Origin: Candidatus Saccharimonadales bacterium
GTDB taxonomy: Bacteria; Patescibacteriota; Saccharimonadia; Saccharimonadales; SZUA-47
DNA length: 64,000 nt
Assembly (NCBI GenBank): GCA_041737385.1
Contig: JBGSRU010000002.1
Coordinates: forward strand, 397,437 to 461,436
Direction of reading: 5' to 3'
The translations under genes were made by a program, and so were the position numbers. The notes beneath the pieces were generated by a model that was not told where the DNA came from, made no database searches, and was given only the letters and a program-made list of their open reading frames with translations. Positions 18,916 through 52,479 of this stretch are shown piece by piece; position 1 is the first letter of the stretch; every line of letters begins with the position of its first letter.

Positions 18916-20481
18916 ATGATGGGTAAGCGTGTGCCTATTGTTGCTATTGTTGGACGCGCCAATGTCGGTAAGAGCAGTCTGTTTAACGCCATTCTAGGCC
19001 GTAGAGAAGCGATTGTGGCTGACGAAGCTGGTACGACTCGTGACAGCATCACTGCAAAAGCAGAGCTCGAATCCGGTAAACAGTTCTGGTTAGTTGATAC
19101 TGCTGGCCTAAAAGATGCTGCTGACTCGTTTGAGCTCACCATCCAAGATCAGATTGTCGAAGCAGCCAACAGTGCTGACGTTATATTGGTTACTGTAGAA
19201 GCGACGACGAGCATTACCACAGAGGACCGACGCGTTGCAAAGCTTGCATTTAAGAGCGGCAAACAACTCATACTGCTTGTAAATAAAGCTGATAAAGCCA
19301 AAAAAGAACAAATCCAAGCCTTCGAAAAACTAGGCATCAAACCACTAATTGCGACCTCTGCGACGCAGAAAATTGGCTTTGAGGCGCTAGAAGAGGCACT
19401 TGAAGAAGCGTTGCCAGAAGCTTATATCCAAGAAGATGACAACCGCGTGCGTATCGCGCTACTTGGTCGTCCAAATGTTGGTAAGAGTAGCCTCTACAAC
19501 ACACTCGCAAAGAAGCAGCAGGCCATTGTCGCCGACAGAGCGGGTACGACTCGTGACATCAACCGAACACTCATCAAATATATGGGACGCGAGATAGAAC
19601 TTCTTGATACAGCAGGCATCCGCCGAAGTGGCCGAATCGAAAGAGGCGTCGAACACTTCAGCGTGTTACGAAGCTTACAAGCAATCGAAGAATCTGATGT
19701 CTGTCTACTGCTGGTTGACGCTACCGAACTAAGCGTTGCGCTTGATCAGAAAATCGCTGGCATGGTCAAAGAATCGGGCAAGGGGCTGGTTATTGTTATC
19801 AGTAAATGGGATTTAATGAAGCAAGATACTGAATTTGAAGAGTATAACCCGCTAGTTGTCGAAAAGCGTCGCTCTAAAAAAGGCAAGGCCTTGCAAGAAG
19901 CGGCCGAAGAGAAGGCACAAGTCGAGGCTATCGAAGCGCCAGCACCGAAGGTTCTGGATATGCACAGTAAAGTTTCACGCAGAATGCAAAGCGACTTTAT
20001 ATTTGTACCTTGGGCGCCACTCATATTTACAAGTAGCGAAACAGGTAAAAACGTCGCCAAGATATTCGACGTCGCCTTAGAAATCATGGACAGACGTGCA
20101 CAGAAACGCACTACCAGAGAACTCAACAACTGGCTCAAAGCCGTCACTGGTCGTCATCCACCAGCTGGCCTCAAAAACCGCATGCCAAAACTACGCTATA
20201 TGGTTCAGGAAGAAGACAATCCTATTCCTGCATTCAAAGTGTTTGGTTCCCAGACAAAATTCCTCCACTGGAGCTACAAGCGCCATATGGACCGAATGAT
20301 GCGTGAATCATGGGATTATACCGGCACACCTGTACAGCTTTGGTTCATTGACCGCGATGAAGACAAGCCTAAGAAATTCAAGAACAACGGTAACCGTGAC
20401 AAGAACAAACAGTACAAAGAGAAGAAACAAGCAAAATCAGAAACACGTCAAAACACTGACGAAGATAACTGGGCTTCCTAG
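18916..20481 (+). CDS. der: ribosome-biogenesis GTPase Der/EngA
   Basis: Two G domains ('GRANVGKSSLFN', 'GRPNVGKSSLYN', each with DTAG) and a KH-like C-terminal domain, plus a Lys-rich tail. AGGAG lies upstream. Confidence 0.9.
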   Translation: MMGKRVPIVAIVGRANVGKSSLFNAILGRREAIVADEAGTTRDSITAKAELESGKQFWLVDTAGLKDAADSFELTIQDQIVEAANSADVILVTVEATTSITTEDRRVAKLAFKSGKQLILLVNKADKAKKEQIQAFEKLGIKPLIATSATQKIGFEALEEALEEALPEAYIQEDDNRVRIALLGRPNVGKSSLYNTLAKKQQAIVADRAGTTRDINRTLIKYMGREIELLDTAGIRRSGRIERGVEHFSVLRSLQAIEESDVCLLLVDATELSVALDQKIAGMVKESGKGLVIVISKWDLMKQDTEFEEYNPLVVEKRRSKKGKALQEAAEEKAQVEAIEAPAPKVLDMHSKVSRRMQSDFIFVPWAPLIFTSSETGKNVAKIFDVALEIMDRRAQKRTTRELNNWLKAVTGRHPPAGLKNRMPKLRYMVQEEDNPIPAFKVFGSQTKFLHWSYKRHMDRMMRESWDYTGTPVQLWFIDRDEDKPKKFKNNGNRDKNKQYKEKKQAKSETRQNTDEDNWAS

Positions 20482-20515
20482 CTTGTTCTAGGCTTCTACT
20501 TTATACTGTTAGCTA

Positions 20516-21151
20516 ATGGGATTATTTGACCGCAAAAACACGAATTATAACGAATCGCAGCCACTATACACGCTGAGCAGTAGTCAGAACTTATTGGTGG
20601 TAGGGCTCGGTAATGTAGGCGCTGCGCACGCTAAAAACCGGCATAACATCGGATTTATGGCAATCGATCGCTATAAAGCTTCACATGATTTTTCTGATTG
20701 GATAGAGAAAAAAGATCTACAATGCTACATCGCAACCGGCACCGTCGGAAGTACTCGAGTTATTCTGATTAAACCGACAACCATGATGAACCTCAGTGGG
20801 GAAGCAGTGCAAAAAGTACAGAATTTTTATAAAATTACTGATGTTGAAACACTAGCCATATACGACGAGCTTGATGTCAATTTTGGCACAATCCGCACCA
20901 GAGTTGGTGGTGGCAGTGCAGGGCATAACGGCATCAAATCACTCCTGCAGCACGCAGGTGAGGGCTTTGGCCGTATTCGAATAGGTATTGGACCAAAATC
21001 TCACGAGCAAATGGACAGTGCAGACTTCGTGCTACAAAACTTCTCTGAGACAGAAGTAGGAAAACTACCAAAAGTACTCAAGGAAGCCTGCGCGCTGATA
21101 GACGAGCGAACAGTCGGACCGCTGCAAGATGCAACTATATCTGTTAGTTAA
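20516..21151 (+). CDS. pth: peptidyl-tRNA hydrolase
   Basis: 'VGLGNVGAAHAKNRHNIGF' and 'GGGSAGHNGIKS'. Confidence 0.9.
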   Translation: MGLFDRKNTNYNESQPLYTLSSSQNLLVVGLGNVGAAHAKNRHNIGFMAIDRYKASHDFSDWIEKKDLQCYIATGTVGSTRVILIKPTTMMNLSGEAVQKVQNFYKITDVETLAIYDELDVNFGTIRTRVGGGSAGHNGIKSLLQHAGEGFGRIRIGIGPKSHEQMDSADFVLQNFSETEVGKLPKVLKEACALIDERTVGPLQDATISVS

Positions 21152-23669: not shown

Positions 23670-24521
23670 ATGAAAAAGCTAGTGCTTGAAGGTACGACAG
23701 CAGACAAGCTGTCTCGACTTAGTAAAAAGGTCGCTATGCTTCATTATGTGGGGATAGATCCGAAGCGCCTAATAGAGGGACCAATAGTCGCAATCGTCGG
23801 TACCAGGAAGCTATCTCCTTATGGACAGCAGGTGACTGAGATGCTTAGCAGTGGACTTGCGAGGGCAGGAGTAACGATCATTAGCGGCAATGCGCTTGGT
23901 GTTGATGTATTCGCCCAAAAATGTGCACTAGAGGCTGGCGGGAAGGTAATAGCGGTTGTTCCAAGCGGTCTCGACAACGTCTACCCAGCAACTAACAGGC
24001 GCGTCGCCGACGCGATAGTGAGCAGTGGCGGCGCGATACTATCCGAATACGAAGCAGGCCACAAACCCATGCGCCACGAATTCCTCGACAGAAACCGTAT
24101 CATTGCCGCTTTAAGTGACGCCGTGATCATCCCTGAGGCTGCTGAACAGTCGGGGAGCCTCAACACTGCTTCTCACGCGTTAAAGATGCAAATACCCGTC
24201 TATGCGGTTCCTGGGCCCATTACTAGTCAGTTAAGTGGTGGAACGAATGCTCTGCTAAAGAATGAGGCGCGGGTAATTACTGAAGTAGAAGACATCTTGC
24301 ACATTCTCAACATCTCTCATCAAAATTCGCAACAAAGTTTACTTGGAAGCAACGAACAAGAGACGGCTATCTTGAGCGCTATCAGTAACGGCGTGCACGA
24401 CGTAGCACTACTGGGAATTCAGCTACAGCTAGCGACCTCAGAACTTCAAAACTCGCTCACTATGCTAGAAATCGATGGGCGTGTCTACCAGAACAGCATC
24501 GGTGCATGGCACATTCGGTAA
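23670..24521 (+). CDS. dprA: DNA processing protein DprA (Smf)
   Basis: 'VAIVGTRKLSPYG', 'ISGNALGVD' and 'IPEAAEQSGSLNTA'. Confidence 0.85.
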   Translation: MKKLVLEGTTADKLSRLSKKVAMLHYVGIDPKRLIEGPIVAIVGTRKLSPYGQQVTEMLSSGLARAGVTIISGNALGVDVFAQKCALEAGGKVIAVVPSGLDNVYPATNRRVADAIVSSGGAILSEYEAGHKPMRHEFLDRNRIIAALSDAVIIPEAAEQSGSLNTASHALKMQIPVYAVPGPITSQLSGGTNALLKNEARVITEVEDILHILNISHQNSQQSLLGSNEQETAILSAISNGVHDVALLGIQLQLATSELQNSLTMLEIDGRVYQNSIGAWHIR

Positions 24522-24623: not shown

Positions 24624-26993
24624 GTGGCTAAAAATCTCGTAATAGTAGAGAGTCCGGCGAAGGCTAAGACGATTGAAAAATATCTTGGGAGCGATTTCAA
24701 GGTGCTATCGAGCATTGGTCATGTTCGCTCTATTGCAAAGAAAAACAGCGACGGCACACCACCAATAGATGTAGATAATGAGTTTAAGACCACCTACGAA
24801 ATCGATTCAGACAAGAAAAAAACAGTCGCTGAACTTCGTAAAGCGGTTAAAGTTGCTGATACTGTATGGCTCGCAACTGACGAAGACCGTGAAGGCGAAG
24901 CGATCGCGTGGCATCTGTGTGAAGCCCTAAAACTAGATATAGCCTCGACAAAACGAATTGTGTTCCATGAAATCACCAAGTCTGCAATCGAAGAAGCGGT
25001 TAAAAACCCACGAATCGTTGATATGAAGTTGGTTGAAGCGCAACAGGCGCGTCAGATACTTGATCGAATCGTTGGCTTTGAGTTGTCGCCTGTCGTCTGG
25101 CAAAAGGTCCCCGGTGGCAAATCTGCTGGCCGTGTTCAGTCGCCGGCTGTACGGCTACTTGTTGAGCGCGAACGAGAAATTGAAAGCTTTGAAGGTTCGT
25201 CTGAGTTTAAAGTAGCAGCCCTATACACCACGAAAGATGGTGAGTTCAAAGCAGAGCTAGAGAAGCGCTTTGCAACTGAAAAAGAGGCTCAGGACTATCT
25301 TGAAATAATCAAAAATGCAGCCCATAAAGTCGCTGAAATCACCGTCAGCCCGGGCACCCGTAACCCTGGGGCGCCTTTCACCACTAGTACACTTCAGCAG
25401 GATGCGAACTCGAAGCTTGGATTTGGCTCAAAAGCTACAATGAGCAGCGCCCAACGTCTGTATCAAAACGGACATATTACCTATATGAGAACTGACTCGG
25501 TATTTTTATCTGGTCAGTCAATCGCCGCGGCGAAAGATTTTATCTCAAAAGAATACGGCGATGATTATTCACAAGTTAGAAGCTTTAAGACTAAATCAGC
25601 TAACGCCCAAGAAGCTCACGAAGCAATCCGCCCATCAAATATCTCTAAGGCAGTCGTTACCTCAGATGAATATGACCAAAGACTGTACAGTCTTATCCGC
25701 AACAGAACACTCGCCAGTCAAATGGCCGCTGCCAAAATCGAACGTACAACAGTAAAAATAACCAACAATGCTGACAATAAAGCGTATGTAGCTAAAGGAG
25801 AGGTGATCAAGTTTGATGGCTTCCTGCGTGTTTATGGCGGTGGCAAAAAAGATCCAGACATTCTCCCACCTGTAAAGAAAGATCAAACGCTTGAATTGAA
25901 CCAAGCAACCGCACGGCAGGTGTTTGCTCGTCCACCCGCACGTTACTCAGAAGGTAGTTTAGTAAAGAAGCTTGAAGAGCTCGGTATAGGTCGCCCAAGT
26001 ACGTATTCGACAATTATAGGTACTGTACAAGCGCGCGGCTATGCAGAGCGAGGTGAAAATGAAGGTGAAGAGCGCGAGATTATAGAGCTACAATTGAACG
26101 GCGGAGAGATCGAACGGACTTTGCAAACTGAAAAATCTGGTGCTGACAAAGGCAAACTTGTTCCAACTCCAACTGGAAAAGTAATCAGTGACTTCCTAAC
26201 CGGCTATTTTGAAAAAATCGTGGACTACGACTTTACGGCAAAAGTTGAACAAGAGTTCGACAAAATCGCCGACAATGAACTCGACCGTAACACCATGCTC
26301 AAAGATTTCTATACGCCGTTCCACGAGCTAATTGAGAAATCAGGCGACATCGACCGTTCTACTGTATCTCAAGCCAGAGAAATCGGCGTTGATCCTAAAT
26401 CAGGCAATATGATTATTGCTCGCTTTGGACGATTTGGACCGATGTTACAGCTGGGTGAAGCAACTGATGACGAAAAGCCTCGGTTTGCACCACTTCCTAA
26501 AGGCTCGCGCCTCGAAACAGTGACGCTCGAAGAAGCGTTAGAGATGTTTAAGCTTCCACGGCTGGTTGGACAAACCAAAGATGGTAAAGATATTCGTGCA
26601 AACATTGGCCGTTTTGGTCCATACGTACAGGTTGAAAAAGCATTTTTCTCTATAAAACCTCATGATCCAATGACTATATCGCTAGAAGAAGCACAGGAGA
26701 TTATTAACACAATCACCGAAAAGCGAAAGCCGATTAAGGTATTCGAAACTGCCGGAATAGAGATATTGAATGGCCCATATGGCCCTTATCTGAAAAAAGA
26801 CAAGACAAATGCACGTATCGCAAAAGACCGTGACCCTGAGACGATTACTGAAGAAGAAGCTATCCTGATGATAAAAGACGCACCAGCCAAAAAGGGAAGA
26901 GGACGCTTCGCTAAGAAGGGTGCTAAAACAGCCAAGAAAGCTCCTGCCAAGAAGAAAACTACTCGCAAGAAACCTGCCGCTAAAAAGAAATAA
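24624..26993 (+). CDS. topA: DNA topoisomerase I
   Basis: GTG start, Toprim 'LVIVESPAKAKTI...ATDEDREGEAI', active-site 'ITYMRTDS', and a Lys-rich C-terminal tail with no Zn-finger cysteines. Confidence 0.95.
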   Translation: MAKNLVIVESPAKAKTIEKYLGSDFKVLSSIGHVRSIAKKNSDGTPPIDVDNEFKTTYEIDSDKKKTVAELRKAVKVADTVWLATDEDREGEAIAWHLCEALKLDIASTKRIVFHEITKSAIEEAVKNPRIVDMKLVEAQQARQILDRIVGFELSPVVWQKVPGGKSAGRVQSPAVRLLVEREREIESFEGSSEFKVAALYTTKDGEFKAELEKRFATEKEAQDYLEIIKNAAHKVAEITVSPGTRNPGAPFTTSTLQQDANSKLGFGSKATMSSAQRLYQNGHITYMRTDSVFLSGQSIAAAKDFISKEYGDDYSQVRSFKTKSANAQEAHEAIRPSNISKAVVTSDEYDQRLYSLIRNRTLASQMAAAKIERTTVKITNNADNKAYVAKGEVIKFDGFLRVYGGGKKDPDILPPVKKDQTLELNQATARQVFARPPARYSEGSLVKKLEELGIGRPSTYSTIIGTVQARGYAERGENEGEEREIIELQLNGGEIERTLQTEKSGADKGKLVPTPTGKVISDFLTGYFEKIVDYDFTAKVEQEFDKIADNELDRNTMLKDFYTPFHELIEKSGDIDRSTVSQAREIGVDPKSGNMIIARFGRFGPMLQLGEATDDEKPRFAPLPKGSRLETVTLEEALEMFKLPRLVGQTKDGKDIRANIGRFGPYVQVEKAFFSIKPHDPMTISLEEAQEIINTITEKRKPIKVFETAGIEILNGPYGPYLKKDKTNARIAKDRDPETITEEEAILMIKDAPAKKGRGRFAKKGAKTAKKAPAKKKTTRKKPAAKKK

Positions 26994-27015
26994 CTTTTCT
27001 TAAGAGCTTCTTTTC

Positions 27016-27255
27016 ATCACCCATTTGGCAACAAACGGGTGACGCCCAAACTGCCAGCCGTACTCAAAAACATGACTAACCGGATTGTTCAGTTCTCTGT
27101 TGCTGCGGAACGAACCTGTCCTCAGAGAGGCCAGAACCGTTTTTGGCTTTTTCCGTTAGTTATTTGCCAAAAAACGTCCTCGCAAATGACTCAGTGAACA
27201 AAACAAACCAGTCAATCAGTTCTGTGAGTTTTTATGGCTGGGAGCTCAGCTACAA
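27016..27255 (-). repeat. mosaic intergenic repeat, copy R1 (left arm of inverted pair)
   Basis: It is the reverse complement of 27927-28153 at roughly 80% identity by eye. The terminal hairpin is at 27017-27042. Confidence 0.85.
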
Positions 27256-27318
27256 GCCCGATGGCATCAAGAAGCTACTGCTTTTACTTCGTTGCTCACT
27301 GGGATATACTTCTTTATT

Positions 27319-27897
27319 ATGAGCTTACCAACACTAATTGACCACAATAATGAAATCGGAATAGAAGCAGGTGACAGAAGACCATACTTAGAACGCTATG
27401 TTGAAGCAAAGAATATCGAGCTAGCTGAAAAATTTGCAGATGGGAGTGTGGCTGTACGTCACACATTATCACCTGAATTAGCTCGTTTAGCATTTACGTT
27501 CGTAAAAGCTACGTTTAGACTTATAGACATCCAACAGAGCAATAGAGATGATAATGCGGACAGAGTCAAAGCCCAACAAGCAGATGTTGATGTTTGGACC
27601 AGCCGAGTTGACGCGGTAACAACTGGTTACGTGGCGTTTCACGAAACAATTGACTATTTTACTAGAAAAGCTTCGGATGCAAGGCTAGAAGACGATGAGG
27701 AAACACGACATAAAATACTAGGGCTGCAAAACAGAGCTGGAGAAATAGTTGTAGAAGCAGAACCAGACAGTCCGCTTTCTTGGACTATCCCAGACGTAAA
27801 TCCACCAAATTCGGTATTTGATCTACCTAAAAGCAAACAAGAATGGCACGTCAGAGAACGACACGTTCCACCTTCAAGTACAGATTCTACTATATAA
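27319..27897 (+). CDS. hypothetical protein enclosed by the ~230-bp inverted repeats
   Basis: 193 aa from the ATG at 27319 (the ORF track starts at TTG 27292). It is acidic and helical in flavour, with no SD and no motif I recognise. Confidence 0.45.
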   Translation: MSLPTLIDHNNEIGIEAGDRRPYLERYVEAKNIELAEKFADGSVAVRHTLSPELARLAFTFVKATFRLIDIQQSNRDDNADRVKAQQADVDVWTSRVDAVTTGYVAFHETIDYFTRKASDARLEDDEETRHKILGLQNRAGEIVVEAEPDSPLSWTIPDVNPPNSVFDLPKSKQEWHVRERHVPPSSTDSTI

Positions 27898-27926
27898 TTT
27901 GTACTAGTGTTGCTGAATGTAGCTAT

Positions 27927-28153
27927 CCCAGCCATAAAAACTCTAAAACTGATTAATAAGCCTCTCCGAGTTACCGAGTAGTTTGCGAGGCTTATTTTTG
28001 TAAGTAACTAAGAAAACAACAAAAATCTGATTCGCCGGTACTCGGCGAGTATGCTTCGAAGCAACGGTAACTCTGGGAGAGCTTGTTAGTCATGTTTTAG
28101 AGTTCCGGCTGGCGGTTTTGGGCATCACCCGTTTTGCCGTCAAAATGGGTGAT
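27927..28153 (+). repeat. mosaic intergenic repeat, copy R2 (right arm of inverted pair)
   Basis: Blocks CTCTAAAACTGAT (27951-27963), TAACTAA (28005-28011), CTTGTTAGTCATGTTTT (28082-28098) and CCGGCTGGCGGTTTTGGG (28105-28122), plus a hairpin at 28125-28152. Confidence 0.85.
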
Positions 28154-28430
28154 AAATTAAACACACAAACTTATAAATCTATTAAGTTAAGGATGATTTG
28201 TCACCTTTAAACGGAACTAACAGCGAAAAATAAACATAAGCATAATTTAATAGTGCAATATTTGTCACATTTCCACAATATGTACAGAGGGAAGGGTATG
28301 TTTCGTAGTAATATCTACATACATTCTATATGCATAAATAGCTATAAGCTGGTAAAATAAGACTATAAGAAAACAAATGTTGACTTTTAAAAACTTTTGT
28401 TTTAAAATAGACTTATTATAGAAAGAGCAG

Positions 28431-29486
28431 GTGAGTATGGCAGAAGTAGCCGACGCTAGTGAACAGACACTGAACATTGAACAAGTTGTGGGCGATATTC
28501 TAAAGACTATTGATCGTGAAAGAGAACGCGAGATTATATCCCGTCGTTATGGATTATATGACCGTAAAGAGACTCTTGAACAGATAGGGGAGCTGCTAGG
28601 TATCACTCGTGAGCGCGTCCGCCAGCTAGAAAAAGCTGTTATGACCAAACTGAAGAGTGTTGCAGCGAAAGAGCTCCCTCACATCAGTGCTATCGAATCA
28701 GTATTGAGCAAGCACATCACTTCAATGGGTAATGTCGCGAGAGTCACTGACCTAACTGACAAAGTAGTTGCGAAGCCGTCAAAAATCGATCATTCAAGAG
28801 TTGCATTTCTTGCTCAGCTCGCCCCAGCGCTAACCCATGTCGGCGAAAATGACCACTTCCATAACGCCGTATCACTCAAGGAACTTCATTCTGAAAAAAC
28901 TGTTCGTGAAAACGTCGGTCACGTCATCGAAGCAATCAAGAAAATTGGCAAACCAGTATCTATTGAAGAGATCGCTGGCGCAATGGGCCACCCAGAAGCA
29001 AAATCTGTTGAGGCGCTTGCAACCGTCAGCAAAGACCTTGCAACACTAAACGGTCGATGGGGACTGATCAAGTGGCCAACCGTTAATCCTAAGAACATTC
29101 GAGACAAAATCTACGTTATACTTCATGAAAACGGCAAGCAAATGCACTTCGGTGAAATCGCTGAAGCAATCCGTGAATCTGACTTTAAACGAAAAGATGT
29201 CACCACTCAAGCTATCCACAACGAACTTATCAAAGACAAGCGATTTATCCTCGTTGGACGCGGCATCTATGCTCTAAAAGAGTGGGGCTTCAAACAGGGA
29301 ACAGTTGCTGACGTTATCACAGAAGTCCTTAAAGACGCTGCAGAGCCACTACACCGTGATGAAATCGTTAAACGAGTCCTAAAGCGCCGTTTTGTTAAAG
29401 AAACGACTATTCTACTCAACTTGCAAGGCAAACCACAGTTCAAACGAACTGCAAAAGCCACCTACACCCTCGCCGACAAGGAATAA
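28431..29486 (+). CDS. sigma-70 region-4-like HTH fused to HARE-HTH-like winged-helix repeats
   Basis: 'RRYGLYDRKETLEQIGELLGITRERVRQLEKAV' resembles sigma region 4. 'MHFGEIAEAI...LVGRGIYALKEWG' resembles HARE-HTH. Alternative ATG at 28437. Confidence 0.5.
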   Translation: MSMAEVADASEQTLNIEQVVGDILKTIDREREREIISRRYGLYDRKETLEQIGELLGITRERVRQLEKAVMTKLKSVAAKELPHISAIESVLSKHITSMGNVARVTDLTDKVVAKPSKIDHSRVAFLAQLAPALTHVGENDHFHNAVSLKELHSEKTVRENVGHVIEAIKKIGKPVSIEEIAGAMGHPEAKSVEALATVSKDLATLNGRWGLIKWPTVNPKNIRDKIYVILHENGKQMHFGEIAEAIRESDFKRKDVTTQAIHNELIKDKRFILVGRGIYALKEWGFKQGTVADVITEVLKDAAEPLHRDEIVKRVLKRRFVKETTILLNLQGKPQFKRTAKATYTLADKE

Positions 29487-29494
29487 AACTCTTT

Positions 29495-30163
29495 ATGTCC
29501 TCAATACCCCCTCAATTCACCGTCGAGGACGTCGAGGCGCTACATCCTCATGTTCCATTCGAACATGGTCCTGATACAGTCCTAGAATTCGCAGATATGT
29601 GGGATTTTAAAACAAGATTTGAGAACGGGCTTCCCGAATTTATAGATAGCGATAATGGGACAGTACAAGATTGGCGAAACAGACTAGATATAACGAGGCT
29701 CATACCGGCTAAATCAATACCTTTTAATGGAAGATTTGCTGATATTGAAGTTGTGCCAATAGAAGATCCACTGTCTATATTTGCAGCCACGGACGCTACA
29801 GTATTAGTAACGAATGGAGCAAAAGCTCATAGTGGCGAGATTGATCGGATAGTCGGTCTACCCGACACACTAAAATCACGCATCCTTGGATTTGATTTTT
29901 CAGGAAAAGCTTATTCTTCAGCTTCGAGCAGCAAATCAGAAATTACTACCATAAGAACACTACTAATGTATGTTCCCGTGTCGCCTAAGTTTGGCGTAAA
30001 ATCGATCAGTAAATATAGAGAGGATAGCTCAAGGTTTGGTTTAAGACGCTTTATGACGAAACCAACCGGCGATATTGATGCCATTACGGAACTATTAGAA
30101 AAATCAGCAGTACGAAGAATGAATCAACGATCAAGACAGGTGCCTGGTTCTGTTACCCAATAA
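29495..30163 (+). CDS. hypothetical protein
   Basis: 222-aa ORF starting 8 nt after the preceding stop, with no motif I recognise. Confidence 0.45.
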   Translation: MSSIPPQFTVEDVEALHPHVPFEHGPDTVLEFADMWDFKTRFENGLPEFIDSDNGTVQDWRNRLDITRLIPAKSIPFNGRFADIEVVPIEDPLSIFAATDATVLVTNGAKAHSGEIDRIVGLPDTLKSRILGFDFSGKAYSSASSSKSEITTIRTLLMYVPVSPKFGVKSISKYREDSSRFGLRRFMTKPTGDIDAITELLEKSAVRRMNQRSRQVPGSVTQ

Positions 30164-30381
30164 AGAGTTACATACAAAACTGAACGTTTTACGAACAATA
30201 CTAAGAATTATTATTTATACCTAAATATGTGAAAATAACGCTAATGTAGAAAAAAACAATAAAACTAGAGCGGAGCAGGTTAATAGAGGATTTTTTATAA
30301 AACATAAAAATATTTAGCAGAATTGAAGAAAAATTACTAGGCGAGAATAGCAGCAGAGGACAGAAAGCGAACATAGACATG

Positions 30382-30409
30382 ACGTCGCACAATGTATATT
30401 TTGCGACGT
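30382..30409. other. candidate dif (Xer recombination) site
   Basis: ACGTCGCACAA-TGTATA-TTTTGCGACGT. The two 11-nt arms are inverted repeats differing at 1 position, the 6-nt centre is identical to E. coli dif, and the whole site matches E. coli dif at 18 of 28 positions. Confidence 0.4.
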
Positions 30410-30589
30410 GCATATCTTATAAATAGTTGATTCCTTATACCACCCTAAATAGGGCACTTTTAAAGTAATGCCTGCTTTTCATAAAATTTTGATGTTACTG
30501 CCGTTGCTGCTACTTATTTCTAATCTTTATAGCTTCACCTATTAAACTTACAGGGCCAAGCAGTCGTAGTACTTTTTGCTACTTATAAG

Positions 30590-30598
30590 TTATCCACA
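30590..30598 (+). promoter_or_regulatory. perfect DnaA-box consensus 9-mer TTATCCACA
   Basis: Exact match in the 677-nt ORF-free gap. 8/9 variants lie at 30227-30235 (reverse) and 30622-30630. Confidence 0.25.
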
Positions 30599-30840
30599 CT
30601 TACATGCGTGAAATCACTTGCTTTTTCACGATTAAATATACTTGTATACTTTCTTCCCTGTTCACCCCTCCCTGCCGTTTGACAATATTTGACTTTTGTT
30701 TATTTATATATATAAGTATGTTTTTATATAATTTATGAACACTTTGCGAACTATAACAGGGTAAGAGCGGGTGAGCGGGCTTCCCTAACCAGCCAAAGAA
30801 ATATACGTCTCTTAAGCCTACTACTTATTTACGGAGGTCT

Positions 30841-31776
30841 TTATTTAATGAAAACTCTATCGTCGATTCTCACATCGATATACTCTTGAGGTAACTTCCC
30901 CTCGCCTGCTAGCTGTTCTATAGTCGCAGCGAGTGATCCTACTTGTAAGCGAGCATCTCGTTCAGGGGTTAGCTTTGCATATAAAGAGAGTCCATCAAAA
31001 CGAGCACGTATCTCTCTTTTCTGAACATCAAACTCAATGCTTTTTAGCTTTTTACGAAACTCCGTCGATCCATCAAACTCTGAAACAAGCAGCCCAACAA
31101 GCGTTGCTTCATCACTTGTAAGCAGTTGTGCACCTTGCGATATTGTTATATTAGGGAGAGATAACAATGGAAGACTTGCGAAAGATGAGTTTATTTTTTC
31201 TTGAGATTCTACCTGTAGCACCACACCACCCTTACTTAGAAGGGCTTCTTGGTTGCCGCCAGTATTGAGTCTTACTAGAGGGTCAACAAGACGTAAAGAA
31301 ACCTGCAATTTTCGGCCGGCTAGTGGAATAACCACTGAAGCTTGCTCTACTTCAGGAAAGGCTTCTTTTATCCGAGCCTCAAACTTTTCAGTGTTTACGC
31401 TAAACTTACTTTTATACAAAAAAGAACTACTGAAAATTTGATTAATTTGTTGATTATACGCTTCTTTTGATCTGTAGGATTTAGTTGTTTCGCTGTCAAA
31501 GCTTTTTATTCGTACCGTTGTCGATGATAGTGTCGTGTTAATAAGTATGACAAACCCAAGAGCGAACAAACCAAACCATTTTATAAAGATGTTTGAAGCA
31601 CGTTTTATGGTAATTCTATCTGAGTCTTTTTGGTTTTGTAGATTGGTTTTATCTTTCTTCCGCGTTTTGGCAGCGGTTGCGTTCGCCGGCCTATAGTAGC
31701 GCGCAATAGGTGCAGATTGCCTAGGTGGGAGACTTGCACGTCGGCCTTGCTCTTTTTTCTTGAAAAATTTTTTCAT
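30841..31776 (-). CDS. ftsQ: cell division protein FtsQ/DivIB-like
   Basis: Basic N-terminus, a single TM helix, a POTRA-like region, and a position directly after murG. Confidence 0.65.
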   Translation of the reverse strand: MKKFFKKKEQGRRASLPPRQSAPIARYYRPANATAAKTRKKDKTNLQNQKDSDRITIKRASNIFIKWFGLFALGFVILINTTLSSTTVRIKSFDSETTKSYRSKEAYNQQINQIFSSSFLYKSKFSVNTEKFEARIKEAFPEVEQASVVIPLAGRKLQVSLRLVDPLVRLNTGGNQEALLSKGGVVLQVESQEKINSSFASLPLLSLPNITISQGAQLLTSDEATLVGLLVSEFDGSTEFRKKLKSIEFDVQKREIRARFDGLSLYAKLTPERDARLQVGSLAATIEQLAGEGKLPQEYIDVRIDDRVFIK

Positions 31777-41543: not shown

Positions 41544-41584
41544 TATGTAGAGTTTACCAGAAATTATAGAAATTGTGGCTTTGC

Positions 41585-41750
41585 GCGCCACACCTCGCCA
41601 TACTTTTACCTGCAGGTGCAAAAGTATGCAAAACCCCCGCACCCGGCCGAAAAACATGATTGAAACAAGATACCAGACAGGCTTGCGCAGCGAGGACGCA
41701 AGCGACCTTCGGCTTATCTTCAGCTATTTGCCTTAGGTTGGCTCACTGCT
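41585..41750 (-). repeat. mosaic intergenic repeat, copy R3a (truncated)
   Basis: The reverse complement of 41585-41700 aligns with 47060-47170 of R4. Shared features are CTGGTAT..TTTCA.TCA.GTTT, GGGTGCGGGG(G)TTTT, and the hairpin TACTTTT..AAAAGTA at 41601-41626. Confidence 0.8.
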
Positions 41751-42072
41751 TGACTCAAGCCAGACTGATTTGCTTCATCAGTTTTTCAGAGGGTGAAAGG
41801 TTCAATCATGGATTGAAGCCCGTAGCTCCTGTAGCCCAATCCAGCATAAAACGCGAGAAACCAATGAAACAACTGCAAAACAAGTCGAGTCAATTGTGAG
41901 GACCAGGCAAAAGTACTTAATGGTAGAATCTACTTTTGCCCGACCAAAGGGAGTTCCGCAACAACGACCTGTTTTGCAGTTGTTTCAATTGTGTTTGTTG
42001 CGTCCGGGTGGTGGTTTTTGCCTCTCGTTTTTGGCAGCAAAAATGAGAGCCTTCTGTCGCACGGATGCGACA
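41751..42072 (+). repeat. mosaic intergenic repeat, copy R3b
   Basis: ACTGAT (41764-41769), a 10-bp stem (41906-41915 with 41931-41940), CGACCAAAGGGAGT, GTTCCGCAACAAC (41953-41965), TCCGGGTGGTGGTTTTTGC (42003-42021), and a hairpin at 42022-42049 with loop GGCAGC. Confidence 0.8.
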
Positions 42073-42779: not shown

Positions 42780-43841
42780 ATGAGAGCATCTGCAAATCCG
42801 GAAGCAAGAAAGCTAAGTTTCGACCATCAGCCTACTGGCTTTACTGACGTGTCTTTTGCGTTAGGTGGAGTAAACCACGATATCCGTAGGTTAACTACTG
42901 GTGTTGTTGCGGTCTCTGGTGACTGTCCAACTATACAAGATATAGCAGATTCTTTAAGAGAGTTAGGAGCCGACCAACTACATGAAGTTACACACTCATT
43001 AATCCGGAATCACGTAGAACATACTCCTCCCGAAGTTATAGACTTTGAAAGATACGAAGAAACTGACACAGTTTGCATAACAAGGCTTACTGGTCTTTCA
43101 GTCGCAATTGGAGGTGTCATGTTGGAAGAGTTGGGAGGCATAAATACTGTTGGAGGTCTACAGTCCTTAGTCGGAGGCTTTAAACTTGTTAATAATAAGG
43201 GAGAACGAGTTTTTCCTGGTCCAGGTCTTAGATATTTGATATATGACAGATTCATTAGTGAGGGTGGGTCTTTTCAGGGCAGCAAGTTAGCACCAAAATT
43301 TGTAAAAATAGGATCAACAAGAGACGCCTTAAGGGGCCAACTAGATCAATTAGTCGATCAAGGCTACGTTACAGAAGGACCAAAAAAAGGAACGAGCCCT
43401 ATTACGTATACCTTAGATCCAGCTAAAAGGCCATTTATTCGTGATTATGTAAGTATCGTAAAATCTTTCATATCCAGTCATGATAGATGTATCGACGGTA
43501 TAGATACAATTGAAGGATATCTCGATCCAGAAGATGATAGATCATACGGTGTACCTTACGACGTCAGAAACGCTATGCATAATTCGCCTAAAAGAAATGC
43601 TCCGTTGTCACAAGCGCTCAATGAATATCTACTAAATTTAAGGGCGGAAGGCACAACCGAAGTGAGTACAGCCACACTTGCAGAAAAATACGGCTATACA
43701 ACGAAAAGAATGTATGATCTCCTAAAATACATGTCTACTAGCCCAGATTTTAACGTAAGAAGAGTTGGTGAAAGAGGGAGAAATAGTAAAGGTCAAGGAG
43801 TTAGTGCAAAATGGTCAATATTCTCTTGCTTGGATGAATAG
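42780..43841 (+). CDS. hypothetical protein with winged-helix-like segments
   Basis: 353 aa. 'LRGQLDQLVDQGYVTEGPKKGTSPITYTL' and 'ATLAEKYGYTTKRMYDLLKYM...' look wHTH-like. I recognise no catalytic motif. Confidence 0.4.
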   Translation: MRASANPEARKLSFDHQPTGFTDVSFALGGVNHDIRRLTTGVVAVSGDCPTIQDIADSLRELGADQLHEVTHSLIRNHVEHTPPEVIDFERYEETDTVCITRLTGLSVAIGGVMLEELGGINTVGGLQSLVGGFKLVNNKGERVFPGPGLRYLIYDRFISEGGSFQGSKLAPKFVKIGSTRDALRGQLDQLVDQGYVTEGPKKGTSPITYTLDPAKRPFIRDYVSIVKSFISSHDRCIDGIDTIEGYLDPEDDRSYGVPYDVRNAMHNSPKRNAPLSQALNEYLLNLRAEGTTEVSTATLAEKYGYTTKRMYDLLKYMSTSPDFNVRRVGERGRNSKGQGVSAKWSIFSCLDE

Positions 43842-46084: not shown

Positions 46085-46153
46085 AAGAATTTTCTCCTTG
46101 TTATGTTTGCTATTTTGACAGAATATTTTATATATGTTAAACTGTTCACCATA

Positions 46154-46930
46154 ATGAACAACAAAGAAACACTTTTAACTCAATTAAAGAAGTTAGGTTT
46201 GTCCGTCGATGAAGGCAAAATATATTTAGAACTTTTGAAAGAGCCAAATTCTCATCTAGAGTTAGCTAGGATAACTGGAGTAAATCGTACTAAGGTATAC
46301 CGAATTGCTGAAGAGCTACAGAAAAAAAGTCTAATAACTACCCGAACTGATGATAGAGGTACGTTTCTTATCGCAACTGACCCTTCTACCCTAGACGTCG
46401 AAATAGCCGAAAAGGAAGAAAAACTATCAAATCAAAGAGAAATATTCGCCAACATACTTCCAGAGCTAAATAAACTGCAGGCAGAAGGCCATAATGTTCC
46501 TGGCTACTTTGAAGTCAATACCTATGAGGGTGTCGATGGTATGAAACAAATGCTTTGGCACGAGCTAAAAACAAAGGGTGAAATGCTCGGGTTCGGTTCT
46601 GGGACGATCGCAGACTTAGTCGATAGTGAACGTCTTGCAGAGAGACATCGTGCAATGACTGTTAGTGCGGGATATAAAGTAAGGGAAATAATAAATCCCG
46701 GCAAAAAGCGTGAAGATTTTACAAAAAATGATGATTTCAAACAGATTTTTAATAAAAAAGTCATTCCTGAAGAAGATTTACTCTTAGAACAACAAATAAT
46801 CATTTATAACGATACTGTTGCTGTGTATAGCTGGCGCAATAATCAGCGTGTTGGGTACGAAGTAATAAATAAAGCATATAACACCATGTGGCGAAACATC
46901 TTTGAACATTATTGGCGTCTAGCTAAATAA
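46154..46930 (+). CDS. TrmB-family transcriptional regulator (paralog 1)
   Basis: N-terminal wHTH 'LKKLGLSVDEGKIYLELLKEPNSHLELARITGVNRTKVYRIAEEL'. I place the start at the ATG at 46154. Confidence 0.65.
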   Translation: MNNKETLLTQLKKLGLSVDEGKIYLELLKEPNSHLELARITGVNRTKVYRIAEELQKKSLITTRTDDRGTFLIATDPSTLDVEIAEKEEKLSNQREIFANILPELNKLQAEGHNVPGYFEVNTYEGVDGMKQMLWHELKTKGEMLGFGSGTIADLVDSERLAERHRAMTVSAGYKVREIINPGKKREDFTKNDDFKQIFNKKVIPEEDLLLEQQIIIYNDTVAVYSWRNNQRVGYEVINKAYNTMWRNIFEHYWRLAK

Positions 46931-46936
46931 ATAGTC

Positions 46937-47230
46937 GTAGCTCCTCCACCCTCTAAAGAACTGATGATAAGAATCAGCTTCTTCTGAGTAGAGCAACAAG
47001 ACTAATCTCCGAATACATAACTAAAGAACTATGAGGGGCGACCAAAGGGAGTCCTTGGTTGCGCAGAAGGAGCTGGTATTTCTTTTCAGTCACGTTTCTT
47101 TAGTGGGGTGCGGGGTTTTCGCTTACTTTTGCACCTGTAGGTAAAAGTAAGGCTGGGTATAGGCAGGCAGCTCCCATGATTTATTTTTTGGCAGCAAAAA
47201 TGAGAGTCGACCTTCGCTAGAATGCGACAA
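46937..47230 (+). repeat. mosaic intergenic repeat, copy R4 (longest, with duplicated E+F module)
   Basis: CTCTAAAGAACTGAT (46951-46965), TAACTAA (47018-47024), CGACCAAAGGGAGT, GGGGTGCGGGGTTTTCGC (47105-47122), hairpin 1 at 47124-47149, and hairpin 2 at 47179-47206 with loop GGCAGC. Confidence 0.85.
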
Positions 47231-47249: not shown

Positions 47250-47689
47250 CTAAACGGTTGTTGTGGGAGATATGTCACTGAAAACTGTTTCTGTGGGTTC
47301 ACCTTGTGTGTAATCACGCAGCCGCATCCACTTCGGAGATATCTTGAAAAACCGTGTAGATTCGTCGTTGAAGAAGTTAGCAAACTCTGGTTCAGCTAGT
47401 AACATTTTCTTTTTTGCATCATTTGCCTCCGCCCCGCTTAGTTCACCGACGTTACCGTCTATTTGAAGTGTGAATTCATGGCCCTCAGCAGTGATAACAC
47501 AAGACACGTGCGGGTTAGATATAAGGTTTTGATATTTTGATAATGCGTATAGGTGTTAATAAGCAGATCATCACCGTCTAAAACATATTCAACAGTAGCA
47601 GCTTCAGGTCTCCCTCTGGTGTCAGCCGTTGCAAGAGTCATATATTTATGCTGTTTTAGAAATTCATAGATTTTTTGCTTATCACTCAT
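47250..47689 (-). pseudogene. frameshifted pyridoxamine-5'-phosphate-oxidase-like (general stress protein 26-type) gene
   Basis: Two overlapping ORFs, 47459-47689 and 47250-47507. The frame changes near 47555-47557, where ...DGDDLLI(N) continues as HLYALSKYQNLISNPHVSCVIT in the -1 frame. Confidence 0.6.
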
Positions 47690-51681: not shown

Positions 51682-52019
51682 CTCACAACCTCCTGACTCC
51701 AAGCAGCACCTAGAGGCTCCGCTACAACGAGACAGGAGTATTTACCCTGATAATCGGTTTCATCTAGTATGCTACCTATAGATATCATAAAAACTTTTTG
51801 CACTTCTGCAATTTTTTGATCTGTCCAGAAATCATCTCTACGAAATCTTACATCAGCGTGTAACTTATTCGCATTTACTAGCACATCGGTTTTGAACCTA
51901 CGCACCTCAACATCGTGTTGGAAATCTCCCGATAAGAAATCTTCACGCATTTTCTCTGCAATCTGTTGAGCAACATACTGGGGGAAATCTTCTTCTGTAT
52001 ATAGGCTAATTATTGGCAT
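51678..52019 (-). CDS. hypothetical protein, possibly tautomerase-like with N-terminal Pro
   Basis: 113 aa beginning 'MPIISLY...'. It is operonic with the SDR and PNPOx-like genes. Confidence 0.35.
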   Translation of the reverse strand: MPIISLYTEEDFPQYVAQQIAEKMREDFLSGDFQHDVEVRRFKTDVLVNANKLHADVRFRRDDFWTDQKIAEVQKVFMISIGSILDETDYQGKYSCLVVAEPLGAAWSQEVVR

Positions 52020-52479
52020 TTTCGTTCCATTCTAGTTTATATTTTTCGCCGTGTTCTCCATCAAATTTGCCAAAAATATACCAGTTTTTAACCGATATTT
52101 TATAGAACTGATGCCCGCCATCTGCTGCTTCAGCAATATAGTCTTTGTCAGTCGTCTGAAGTCTTTTTTTGATACATTCATTTGCAAGGTTCTGTTCGGC
52201 TCCCGCTTCTAGCAGAGTTGCTACGCCTTCAAAATAAAGGCCGAGCGGATAATCTTTCAGACCGTGTTTATCGATGATGTTTCCCGCTACGTTTGGGTTG
52301 GCAGAAATCTCTTGACTGTGTCGCCTCGTTTTCAGTGAACGCCAATATAGGTTTAAGCCTTCATCATAGCCAAAATGCACTTCAGATACCCACGGCGCAT
52401 TACCACTAACTGTCGCAAGTGACATATGAAACGTTCTATCAATGTTTTCTCTCACTATTTTTTCAACATCTACACTCAT
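52006..52479 (-). CDS. pyridoxamine-5'-phosphate-oxidase-like FMN-binding protein
   Basis: 'FHMSLATVSGNAPWVSEVHFGYDEGLNLYWRSLKTRRHSQEISANPNVAG'. Confidence 0.65.
   Translation of the reverse strand: MSVDVEKIVRENIDRTFHMSLATVSGNAPWVSEVHFGYDEGLNLYWRSLKTRRHSQEISANPNVAGNIIDKHGLKDYPLGLYFEGVATLLEAGAEQNLANECIKKRLQTTDKDYIAEAADGGHQFYKISVKNWYIFGKFDGEHGEKYKLEWNENANN

Follow-up and report, generated by a model that had tools for sequence, protein, structure and literature searches.

Just downstream of topA in this Candidatus Saccharibacteria genome, a single small gene is enclosed by two long inverted arms, which raises the question of what the enclosed unit is. From the window (the whole 64-kb stretch of DNA analyzed here), the original prediction offered three options: a mobile cassette, a segment that inverts by recombination between its arms, or a messenger RNA whose two untranslated regions pair into a duplex of more than 200 bp.

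Each arm of the inverted repeat folds by itself

The arms, A and B (Table 1), are reverse-complementary from end to end when 27000-27270 (+) and 27910-28170 (-) are aligned with MAFFT. Global alignment of 27016-27255 with the reverse complement of 27927-28153 places 170 matches in 212 aligned bases (80%, or 71% of the longer arm) compared with 137 +/- 3.6 and a maximum of 148 in shuffled controls, and BLASTN inside the window recovers the two best segments at E = 6e-13 and 7e-6; the predicted extent of the arms and their identity of ~80% are borne out. The core is, as had been read, nearly all one ORF, with a length of 192 aa plus stop. The outer ends lie 22 nt past the topA stop (26993) by our count and ~280 nt before a sigma70_r4/HARE-HTH gene (28431), the latter spacing agreeing with the earlier figure. 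The arms qualify as terminal inverted repeats of a short unit, yet each is also a hairpin by itself, holding alone a double-stranded stem of ~50 bp that had been overlooked. Arm A folds at -95.2 kcal/mol on the minus strand (z = -6.0) and at -77.6 kcal/mol on the plus strand (z = -4.3); arm B, whose folded strand is the plus strand and which is therefore placed in the 3' UTR of the ORF, folds at -106.3 kcal/mol (z = -9.15). A and B are not a simple terminal-repeat pair; it is more apt to regard them as two members of an old family of structured repeats than as the two ends of a single element.

Table 1. Coordinates of the elements, their parts and the bracketed gene in the window
Feature	Position	Strand	Evidence and remarks
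Arm A	27016..27257	-	Covariance-model match 27017-27257 (-), 223.6 bits; seed sequence of model
Arm A, GUAGCU	27250-27255	-	Minus strand folded (plus-strand AGCTAC); long stem and three-way junction follow
Arm A, U3 tract	27049-27051	-	Plus-strand AAA
Arm A, terminal hairpin	27016-27043	-	
Putative ORF promoter	27283..27310	+	TTTACT-16-TATACT; consensus scan, 9/12 matches
Cargo gene	27319..27897	+	ORF, 192 aa plus stop; small helical-protein family
Arm B	27915..28153	+	Covariance-model match 27915-28152 (+), 202.7 bits; seed sequence
Arm B, GUAGCU	27921-27926	+	Plus strand folded; 23 nt past ORF stop; long stem and three-way junction follow
Arm B, U4 tract	28116-28119	+	
Arm B, terminal hairpin	28124-28153	+	
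Copy C, subtype 2	41597..41830	-	nhmmer E = 3e-42 (model includes C); covariance-model match 41600-41811 (-), E = 3e-4, non-seed
Copy C, extra outer hairpin	~41583-41597		
Copy D, subtype 1	41822..42072	+	Covariance-model match 41827-42048 (+), 90.5 bits, E = 1e-21, non-seed
Copy D, outer hairpin	42057-42072		GUCGCAUCCGUGCGAC
Copy E, solo, subtype 2	46937..47153	+	nhmmer E = 1.7e-6 (model excludes E)
Degenerate head fragment of D-type copy	47154..47229	-	Adjoins E; BLASTN and alignment

A strand-specific structured family in Saccharibacteria

There is good support for regarding the arms as diverged copies of a multi-copy structured element of ~240 nt, specific to one strand and carried by a subset of Candidatus Saccharibacteria. 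The element is present five times in the window (A to E, the three beyond A and B at 41.6-42.1 kb and 46.9-47.2 kb), and copies are found in other Saccharibacteria genomes. On the folded strand, (U)GUAGCU leads into a long, interrupted stem of ~50 bp and a three-way junction bearing two hairpins, where the joining sequences (GAGUAAUUUGCGAGGAC ... AAGUAACUAA ... GUUCCGCAGCAAC) are conserved; the 3' strand of the stem is followed by a U tract, U3-U7 in all copies read, and by a terminal hairpin, sometimes with a second hairpin added. Conservation does not extend to the GUAGCU junction in L031, and the other copies do not share the string GTTTTAGAG of arm B. Scanning a metagenome collection for the junction motif (TGCGGAAC...TCCTCRSRADTKACTCR) brought 11 further contigs, and the covariance model, R1, collected 20 copies at E < 5e-4, those outside the seed scoring from 4e-40 to 3e-4. 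A strict three-block motif (AAAACC-N16-AAACRYRAYTRA...TYARBTAY...ACTCR) matched four of the five window copies and none in the genome and metagenome collections, and was over-fitted; an nhmmer profile built from the 20-copy alignment gave no further copies.

Evidence for structure comes from the way the sequences have diverged. RNAalifold predicted 86 pairs, 33 of them with compensatory changes, from an unfitted MAFFT alignment of five copies. Counted on an alignment fitted to the model, the 20 copies have canonical pairs in 92.3% of paired cells (61.8% when shuffled), changes on both sides in 80 of the 86 pairs and a covariation score of 0.61 (0.17 shuffled, ~0.1 slid); on the same fitted alignment G.U outnumbers A.C in paired cells by 115 to 26, which indicates that one strand is the folded one and fits folded single-stranded DNA equally well as RNA. 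The chosen sense strand folds 8-23 kcal/mol better than its reverse complement in 9 of 11 copies. Opposite-strand RNAalifold on a MAFFT alignment of 16 copies gave almost no structure, owing to the wrong strand and to misaligned variable stems, and the reverse strand of a closer subset worked. Structure on one strand, kept by compensatory changes, is the general mark of a structured element acting as RNA or as single-stranded DNA, and the family displays it. Rfam 15 has no family at gathering score in the whole window and none at E <= 10 in 26900-28500, literature searches turned up no description of the element, and a ~240-nt structured repeat of some Saccharibacteria has apparently not been described before.

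Window copies are 40-70% identical to each other, and no pair anywhere is above 79%. Each arm is as near to copies from other metagenomes as to its own partner (A-B 68%, A-O 71%, B-N 69%), and the arms are not homogenised. These comparisons bear on the second option, in which recombination between the arms would invert the 671-bp core. Inverted repeats of ~230 bp around a promoter-bearing gene would suit such a switch, but the longest perfect match between A and B is 18 nt and overall identity is ~70-80%, below the usual need of RecA-dependent recombination. No invertase is present among the larger ORFs of the window, and L001, an independent Logan assembly and the only other one, has the same orientation. 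Flipping would also leave the relation of the gene to its own promoter unchanged. Inversion is, on this evidence, extremely improbable.

The third option, in which A pairs with B over ~200 bp on a read-through mRNA to make an RNase III substrate controlling the gene, draws on thermodynamics: A and B cofold at -231 kcal/mol, against -184 kcal/mol for the summed self-folds, with 95 inter-arm pairs, and the minimum-free-energy fold of 27000-28170 has 88 arm-to-arm pairs. Covariation, however, backs the folds within each arm, and A and B are no more alike than copies of other genomes, which argues that inter-arm complementarity is not under selection. Solo copies exist, the C/D pair is nearly unpaired (only 9-16 long-range pairs), the promoter-like site of the ORF lies downstream of arm A, and local hairpins are favored by folding during transcription. 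A long duplex as the selected structure is therefore very improbable, while partial arm-to-arm pairing on topA read-through RNA is thermodynamically possible according to the folding model.

Pairs, solo copies and their neighbors

Copies occur solo or in pairs, and a pair encloses either nothing or exactly one gene. In all six pairs seen (A/B, C/D, G/H, I/J, N2/N and S/S2) the 5' ends face each other, and in cargo-less pairs they abut or overlap (41822-41830; 2428-2440 in L008, where the junction is palindromic, AGCTAC-A-GTAGCT). Copies C and D form such a 5'-to-5' pair without cargo, D being 20 nt away from the stop of a NYN-domain gene. The proposal that 41585-42072 is the cargo-less counterpart of A/B holds in that the same repeat family is present without cargo, but C and D are only ~40-50% identical to A/B and the two halves are poorly complementary. 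The solo copy E has its GUAGCU at 46937-46942, starting 6 nt past the stop of a TrmB-like gene (46103-46930), and within the adjoining remnant 47185-47229 matches D at 82% across 45 nt (BLASTN, E = 2e-7). Elsewhere, the enclosed genes encode a 181-aa P-loop kinase (L101/L103) and a 148-aa NUDIX hydrolase (L106), and cargo genes have their own promoter-like sites upstream and very short leaders. A pair of subtype 2 with subtype 1 is found at unrelated loci of two species, as C/D in the window and as G/H in L008. An empty site for C/D or G/H was sought and none was identified, because synteny around the NYN-domain gene is too eroded (3 of 16 neighboring proteins are common to L008).

A same-strand stop codon lies 0-65 nt before the sense copy in B, N, S, E, F, L097, L098, L104 and L103 (0-52 nt for B, N, S, E and F; L103 duplicates N), and copies A, N2, S2, O, P, D and G (half) are directed away from the start of the neighboring gene. 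The elements may alternatively be independent genes for small RNAs of ~240 nt, acting in trans or sequestering a protein from promoters of their own, with the pairs as divergent paralogues. Strong covariation, the conserved junction and loop sequences and strand specificity would all suit such RNAs, as would a minus-strand promoter-like site at 27344-27316 directed into arm A. However, the abutting or overlapping 5' ends of cargo-less pairs leave no room for a promoter outside the partner element, many copies start only 0-25 nt past a stop codon, as would fit co-transcription, and the promoter matches are weak and lie within AT-rich spacers. Small-RNA genes are thus an improbable explanation, and five copies in 20 kb are too abundant for a housekeeping RNA.

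The bracketed gene

The ORF between A and B was originally called an orphan, and a word-indexed protein search indeed found nothing beyond the ORF protein itself; exhaustive HMMER searching, however, recovered nine remote homologues at 32-44% identity (E = 3e-21 to 9e-8). With an alignment, AlphaFold2 predicts a helical bundle (pLDDT 75; 42 in a single-sequence run). The ORF has only sub-threshold Pfam matches (E >= 0.009), the nine homologues are likewise without a significant one, PHROGs and PADLOC gave no match, and nothing in the PDB was significant (best sequence E = 0.013; best Foldseek E = 0.62). The H-hydrophobic-H motif is absent from its sequence, in keeping with the earlier reading that the ORF has no transposase, recombinase or HUH motif. 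The flanks of the homologues gave a mixed answer to the suggestion that they too might be bracketed: in L089, L090, L092 and L093-L096 they are ordinary stand-alone genes without elements, and in L088 the homologue is accompanied by pieces of a different subtype. Because its homologues can be element-free and the ORF lacks significant matches in these databases, it is not the mobilizing enzyme of the element. The putative promoter ends 8 nt upstream of the ATG, which implies a very short leader with no Shine-Dalgarno sequence, and direct reading (TACTTCTTTATT-ATG) bears out the absence of the latter.

Insertion or deletion at the topA site

The distance from topA to the sigma-like gene is 1437 nt here, compared with 207 nt in L002, 316 nt in L003, L004 and L006, and 557 nt of unrelated filler in L007. 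The synteny comparison called for at the outset therefore finds the block missing in three related lineages; as topA is directly followed by the sigma-like gene in these relatives, the genomes differ by an insertion or a deletion of the block. In the sister lineage L088 this topA site is occupied by an ORF of 44% identity, accompanied by pieces of another subtype, a state that looks like cassette replacement. Reading both flanks, like the earlier inspection, found no target-site duplication at A/B: no direct repeat is common to the sequence left of the block (...CTTCTTTTC) and that to its right (AAATTAAAC...), the exact right boundary being uncertain because 28154-28240 is without counterpart in relatives. 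The larger ORFs of the 64-kb window, scanned with Pfam, include no transposase, recombinase, integrase, invertase, reverse transcriptase or Cas protein. We infer movement or exchange of elements and bracketed genes from locus to locus; as to the process, neither a target-site duplication nor an associated enzyme was found.

One form of such movement is the first option, in which a pair forms the ends of a mobile cassette or composite MITE, i.e. a non-autonomous transposon of ~450-1150 bp with zero or one passenger gene and a transposase elsewhere. The difference between presence and absence at the topA site, different cargoes in the same bracket, empty pairs of the same family, the recurrence of the C/D arrangement as G/H, the fragments and adjacent copies (the remnant at 47154-47229, the pieces in L088) and the replacement-like state of L088 itself all point this way. 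Against it stand the missing target-site duplication and the lack of a transposase or recombinase among the larger ORFs of the window. Near-identical copies are found nowhere, the arms themselves being only 68% identical, and there is hence no sign of recent transposition; IMG/VR viral contigs had no match with two family motifs. Compensatory change also maintains pairing in every copy; a selfish element left to decay neutrally would not show this. The parts of the cassette idea that concern gain, loss and single-gene cargo hold up, and a transposon of this kind is unlikely as the whole explanation.

Another route would be recombination at folded single-stranded DNA, with a host recombinase reading the hairpin on one strand and swapping the bracketed gene. 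The pdif modules of Acinetobacter plasmids and integron cassettes offer a likeness, as both have modules of one or a few genes, structured or inverted sites and no target-site duplication, and in attC a single strand folds and structure is conserved beyond sequence. The elements here are likewise strand-specific, with G.T-type wobble pairs and structure conserved far beyond sequence; single-gene modules lie between inverted sites in a variable hotspot beside conserved genes, target-site duplication was not seen, and the junction of the L008 cargo-less pair is palindromic. However, pdif has 28 bp and attC 57-141 nt, and attC sites are same-facing and need the integron integrase, whereas the elements here measure 240 nt and face in opposite directions in each of the six pairs, and no integrase or other tyrosine or serine recombinase is present among the larger ORFs of the window. 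Cargo genes carry promoter-like sites of their own, and the variation of the GUAGCU junction in L031 also speaks against such sites, which we regard as improbable. A broader form, in which the elements are boundary sites of a new Saccharibacteria gene-cassette system and are recognised as folded single strands by a host factor, is speculative and distinctly unlikely, its idea being comparable to that of attC and pdif modules and its architecture unrelated. If it were true, genomes and loci would exchange genes one at a time, each nearly leaderless and with a promoter of its own, and the alternative cassettes at the topA hotspot of sister lineages would be the footprint of exchange.

Comparison with known repeats and structured RNAs

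Correia elements (CREE/NEMIS), ERIC, RUP and BOX supply terminators, promoters or RNase III sites. The family resembles them as multi-copy, intergenic hairpin repeats that would be co-transcribed with neighbors and take up a noticeable share of a small genome. Correia elements of Neisseria are simple hairpins of 100-155 bp that have terminal repeats of 26 bp, duplicate a TA and occur in many near-identical copies, whereas the elements here are ~240 nt with a three-way junction, a separate terminal hairpin and no duplication found, have a within-genome identity of only 40-70% and show compensatory change in every stem. REP, BIME and REPIN sequences are similarly palindromic, 3' intergenic and often inverted doublets, with a GTAG-type motif beside the hairpin, and in some genomes a single small gene (RAYT) lies between inverted copies; REPs, however, have 20-40 nt, compared with ~240 nt and 86 base pairs here. 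A RAYT/REPIN reading was rejected, as the bracketed gene has no HUH motif or Y1 transposase signature and no significant Pfam match, and the other brackets contain a kinase and a NUDIX hydrolase.

In size, multi-helix architecture and level of covariation the element is comparable to HEARO/omega RNA, raiA, OLE, ROOL and 6S RNAs, from which it differs in having no Rfam 15 match and no IscB, TnpB, reverse transcriptase or Cas gene nearby. Retron, omega RNA, bridge RNA and tracrRNA were rejected, there being no reverse transcriptase, TnpB, IscB, IS110 recombinase or Cas among the window ORFs. A group II intron was rejected because size, domain structure and intron-encoded protein are all lacking, and an Obelisk-like element because the core is not self-pairing and the unit is chromosomal DNA.

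A proposed role as outward-facing 3'-end modules

The explanation that we favor is that the arms belong to this ~240-nt structured family and act in cis on RNA as outward-facing 3'-end modules, which, identity and role taken together, we put at a probability of about 0.5. With its very stable hairpin and the U tract behind it, an element would terminate transcripts, stabilize them, or both, and RNase III could plausibly cut its long double-stranded stem. The near-leaderless transcript of the ORF would end at arm B, as would any read-through from topA, and arm A, on the opposite strand, would halt transcription leaving the insert toward topA. Between the two arms, the inserted gene would form a transcription unit of its own, insulated from its surroundings.

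Features of intrinsic terminators are present in the family, namely a stable, G+C-rich and G+C-closed hairpin, a U tract directly after it, and a location downstream of same-strand genes, often right past the stop codon. Compared with an intrinsic terminator, however, the stem has about five times the length and is branched, internal sequence is conserved, an extra hairpin lies downstream, and the family is recognizably homologous across species. A plain terminator needs neither a conserved three-way junction nor 240 nt, which counts against termination as the role. Members of the A/B/N/O/P subfamily would be weak terminators at best, since their U tract is only 3-4 nt and is partly paired by RNAalifold, and copies pointing away from the start of a neighboring gene could be transcribed only from a promoter of their own or as antisense. 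The element may in fact serve another purpose, for example to bind a protein or to act as a site in single-stranded DNA.

Implications for reduced genomes

Saccharibacteria have very small, streamlined genomes, and despite this the element reaches a density of about one per 10-13 kb (five in the 64-kb window and, in a second species, three on a contig of 31 kb). Although copies are only 40-70% identical, compensatory change preserves ~86 base pairs in each, which is typical of functional RNAs and poses the question of whether the element terminates or stabilizes transcripts, is cut by RNase III, binds a protein as RNA, or serves for recombination of DNA. For annotators the covariance model is a means to recognize such regions, and for RNA biologists the element is a well-supported new motif. 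The elements mark sites at which small accessory genes are gained and lost beside conserved housekeeping genes, and could help explain how genes are gained, insulated and lost in episymbiotic bacteria with reduced genomes.

A single gene between inverted structured repeats

The arms that the original prediction described as inverted repeats align over their full length (27016-27255 against the reverse complement of 27927-28153), with 170 matches in 212 aligned bases versus 137 +/- 3.6 in shuffled controls. Their best segments reach E = 6e-13 and 7e-6 (BLASTN within the window), and no perfect stretch reported by a repeat finder exceeds 18 nt. The core between them holds one ORF, as predicted, of 192 aa. 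Reading the sequence by eye bore out both the lack of a Shine-Dalgarno sequence before its ATG and the lack of a direct repeat or target-site duplication at the outer ends of the block.

A word-indexed search with the 192-aa protein returned only the query; nine homologues (126-176 aa), which share a conserved N-terminal motif LPT..DHNNRIG..DRRPYL.RY, came from an exhaustive HMMER search. AlphaFold2 with the homologue alignment predicts a helical bundle (pLDDT 75) that has no meaningful match in the PDB by fold or by sequence; Pfam matches are sub-threshold, and PHROGs and PADLOC gave none. As to whether the homologues are also flanked by repeats, most are ordinary stand-alone genes without elements (comparison loci L089, L090/L091, L092, L093-L096 and one JGI contig). 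Thus this real, uncharacterised gene is cargo and not the element's own enzyme.

Features of the window and of comparison loci (positions without an L handle lie in the window)
Feature	Position	Context	Basis
dprA	23670-24521	upstream of block	
topA	24624-26993	upstream of block	
Arm A (-)	27016-27257	faces B	
Promoter-like site of 192-aa ORF	27283-27310	TTTACT-16-TATACT	
192-aa ORF (+)	27319-27897	cargo of A/B	
Arm B (+)	27915-28153	faces A	
Conserved region before sigma70_r4/HARE-HTH gene	28240-28430; L002:3745-3907; L003:9840-10000; L007:1150-1334		
sigma70-region-4/HARE-HTH gene	28431-29486	downstream of block	
Copy C	41597-41830	faces and abuts D, cargo-less	BLASTN + alignment
Copy D	41822-42072	faces and abuts C, cargo-less	BLASTN + alignment
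Copy E	46937-47153		BLASTN + alignment
Degenerate D-type head fragment	47154-47229	beside E	
Solo copy F	L003:2168-2413	contig JAGONL010000003.1	nhmmer
Facing pair G/H	L008:2195-2443 and 2683-2426	abutting; contig JAGONL010000003.1	nhmmer
Facing pair I/J	L031:2165-2470 and 2700-2453		nhmmer
Facing pair N2/N	L101:1244-1550 with 2159-2402	cargo in L101/L103: 181-aa P-loop kinase	
Facing pair S/S2	L106:160-388 with 920-1155	cargo: 148-aa NUDIX hydrolase	
Genes adjoining element 5' end, no Shine-Dalgarno	27283-27321; L101:1560-1600; L102:530-575; L107:531-560; L106:886-915		
Other-subtype element fragments	L088:404-567 and 1033-1133	flank ORF homologue	

A dispersed family of folded elements

BLASTN and alignment uncovered three related copies in the window besides A and B. 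Two of these, C and D, make up the pair at 41585-42072 that had been proposed as a cargo-less counterpart, and they do belong to the same repeat family as the arms. Other Saccharibacteria also carry the element, as found with an nhmmer profile built from the window copies. A first, over-specific DNA motif had zero matches in public collections, a conserved-junction motif led to 11 JGI metagenome contigs, and neither of the two element motifs matched IMG/VR viral contigs. The element is present in 2 of 80 species-level loci around the NYN-domain gene (1.17 Mb); the family is therefore either confined to some of the phylum or, elsewhere, too diverged to be recognised.

Every window copy self-folds into a small hairpin and a branched hairpin of ~190 nt, and in 9 of 11 copies the sense strand, that which begins with (U)GUAGCU, folds 8-23 kcal/mol better than its opposite. 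Arm B on the plus strand reaches -106.3 kcal/mol (z = -9.15) and arm A on the minus strand -95.2 kcal/mol (z = -6.0), versus -87.4 and -77.6 kcal/mol, respectively, for the opposite strands. From (U)GUAGCU the sense strand runs through a long interrupted stem, a three-way junction (two hairpins with conserved joining sequences), a U3-U7 tract seen by direct sequence reading and a terminal hairpin, which in some copies is followed by a second. A, B and three metagenome copies were aligned with MAFFT, unfitted, on the sense strand; from this alignment RNAalifold predicts 86 pairs, 33 with compensatory changes, and several G.U pairs are invariant. A covariance model, R1, built from the same five-copy alignment, recovered, across the window and 13 loci, 20 copies with E < 5e-4, the non-seed copies ranging from E = 4e-40 down to 3e-4. 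In the 20-copy alignment, whose fitting to R1 favours the figures that follow, 92.3% of pair cells are canonical (61.8% shuffled, 36-46% slid), 80 of the 86 pairs show both-sided changes, the covariation score is 0.61 (0.17 shuffled, ~0.1 slid) and G.U pairs number 115 versus 26 A.C mismatches; the unfitted result agrees in direction. No Rfam 15 family matches the element, which is strand-specific, strongly covarying, structured and multi-copy.

The GUAGCU end motif also occurs in tandem at L100:1240-1270 (AGCTACAA x3) and doubled around a small hairpin at L101:2140-2165. It often overlaps the stop of the upstream gene, with TAG inside GTAGCT or as GTAGCTAA (L100:1240-1270, L101:2140-2165, L003:2403-2410). 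Two copies (L104:1440-1520 and L105:12800-12835) are enlarged by ~90-100 nt of additional structure, placed between terminal hairpin and long stem; this may be a nested insertion or expansion segment.

Facing pairs and a proposed role at RNA 3' ends

Sense 5' ends face each other in all six pairs, of which three are empty and three enclose exactly one gene; this 5'-to-5' pairing is non-random, and the single genes bracketed are unrelated. In the cargo pairs, the downstream sense copy lies 23 nt (window) or 52 nt (L106) from the stop codon, or, in L101, overlaps the stop or begins 25 nt after it, and the second copy is directed away from the gene start, 33-63 nt off the ATG. The solo copies E and F begin 6 nt past, or overlap, the stop of a same-strand gene. 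Promoter-like sites in the spacers end a few bases before the ATG, so the cargo genes apparently bring promoters of their own and would have very short leaders, the sites being consensus matches in AT-rich DNA. No gene adjoining an element 5' end has a Shine-Dalgarno sequence, and in each a -10-like box lies just a few bases ahead of the ATG; their mRNAs may be leaderless or near-leaderless when translated.

From the U tract behind a very stable stem, and from the position of sense copies directly after stops, we infer that the most likely role of the elements is that of 3'-end modules working in cis on RNA. They would terminate transcripts and/or shield them from exonucleases, their long double-stranded stems being plausible RNase III sites, and in a pair these stops would face outward and so insulate an inserted gene with its own promoter. 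That the three-way junction is conserved and that the U tract of the A/B subfamily is short show this account to be incomplete.

Element-associated indels beside housekeeping genes

Among relatives whose sigma-like protein is 87-91% identical to that of the window, the gap between topA and the sigma-like gene is 207 nt in L002, 316 nt with a simple hairpin in L003, L004 and L006, and 557 nt of unrelated filler in L007, the closest relative, versus 1437 nt in the window. The A/B block is an insertion or deletion difference among relatives. A mobile cassette had been proposed, and the block is indeed missing from these relatives, but there is no target-site duplication and no transposase among the larger window ORFs checked. 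The left junction (~27015/27016) is backed by the motif AGCTTCTTT common to L007, and the right can be placed only within 28154-28240. About 170 nt before the sigma-like gene are strongly conserved in all compared relatives, which suggests a leader or regulatory region; among them are a TCCACAAT...GTATGTTTCGTAGTAATAT block and, at 28380-28408, TTGACT-17-TAAAAT.

The topA C-terminus of the window is 82% identical to that of L088, from a sister lineage, 85% to L007, and 69% to L002 and L003. At the same place L088 carries an ORF homologue (44% identical by HMMER, 39% by tblastn), flanked in a different arrangement by fragments like the element's other subtype. Different lineages thus carry alternative contents behind topA, and the site is a variable hotspot. 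The two L088 fragments, on a contig of just 1.1 kb, apparently share one direction, as though a single split element enclosed the gene. The 350-nt filler at L007:778-1130 contains CTAGAGCCTAG-type simple repeats and, on the reverse strand, a short ORF, and a ~100-nt hairpin occupies the topA site at L003:9700-9795. Another element-associated indel beside housekeeping genes concerns der and pth, neighbours in the window (20481-20516) that solo copy F and a 408-aa gene separate in a second species (L003:2168-3629).

Such indels would be better explained if the elements were folded single-stranded-DNA recombination sites, or the ends of a trans-mobilised element, than by 3'-end modules, and both alternatives are possible. 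Among the 56 larger window ORFs checked (49 scanned against Pfam and 7 with precomputed Pfam families in L001, a second assembly), none is a transposase, site-specific recombinase, reverse transcriptase or Cas protein; RecO and DprA are the only recombination-related proteins.

By model alignment A and B are 68% identical, and copies from unrelated metagenomes are as close (A-O 71%, B-N 69%); therefore, there has been neither recent duplication nor homogenisation, nor selection for arm-to-arm complementarity. Repeated inversion or gene conversion would homogenise the arms. With no site-specific recombinase among the 56 ORFs and the same orientation in L001, the sole second assembly, the proposed invertible segment is unlikely. 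As to the suggestion that the arms pair as UTRs, the A/B cofold (-231 kcal/mol versus -184 for two self-folds) and 88 arm-to-arm pairs in the minimum-free-energy fold of 27000-28170 predict that partial pairing on read-through RNA is thermodynamically favoured, but C/D forms just 9-16 long-range pairs and family-wide covariation supports within-arm folds.

Other features of the window

A pyridoxamine-5'-phosphate-oxidase-like gene at 47250-47689 (-) is split in two frames (ORFs 47459-47689 and 47250-47507) and so is probably a pseudogene by frameshift, with an intact paralogue at 52006-52479. Genes lie mostly on the plus strand before an AT-rich gap (30163-30841, GC 0.38) and mostly on the minus strand after it, cumulative GC skew declines from ~30 kb on, and this region may be a replication terminus region. 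A 353-aa ORF without Pfam match (42780-43841, +) separates a serine hydrolase gene from the NYN-domain gene, which are adjacent in a relative (L008:4949-6121); in L008 the place of the C/D pair is taken by a gene for a 141-aa membrane protein.

Relation to known repeat systems

Among known systems, transcribed hairpin repeats (Correia, ERIC, RUP and BOX elements; REP/BIME) come nearest, and for the bracket architecture of the pairs it is pdif modules and integron cassettes. The elements do not fit the definition of any of these: there is no target-site duplication, no near-identical copies, no RAYT and no integrase, and size and orientation differ. Full-text literature searches found no description of them. 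We regard them as a new form of structured intergenic repeats, and there is a modest chance that they mark a new cassette system.
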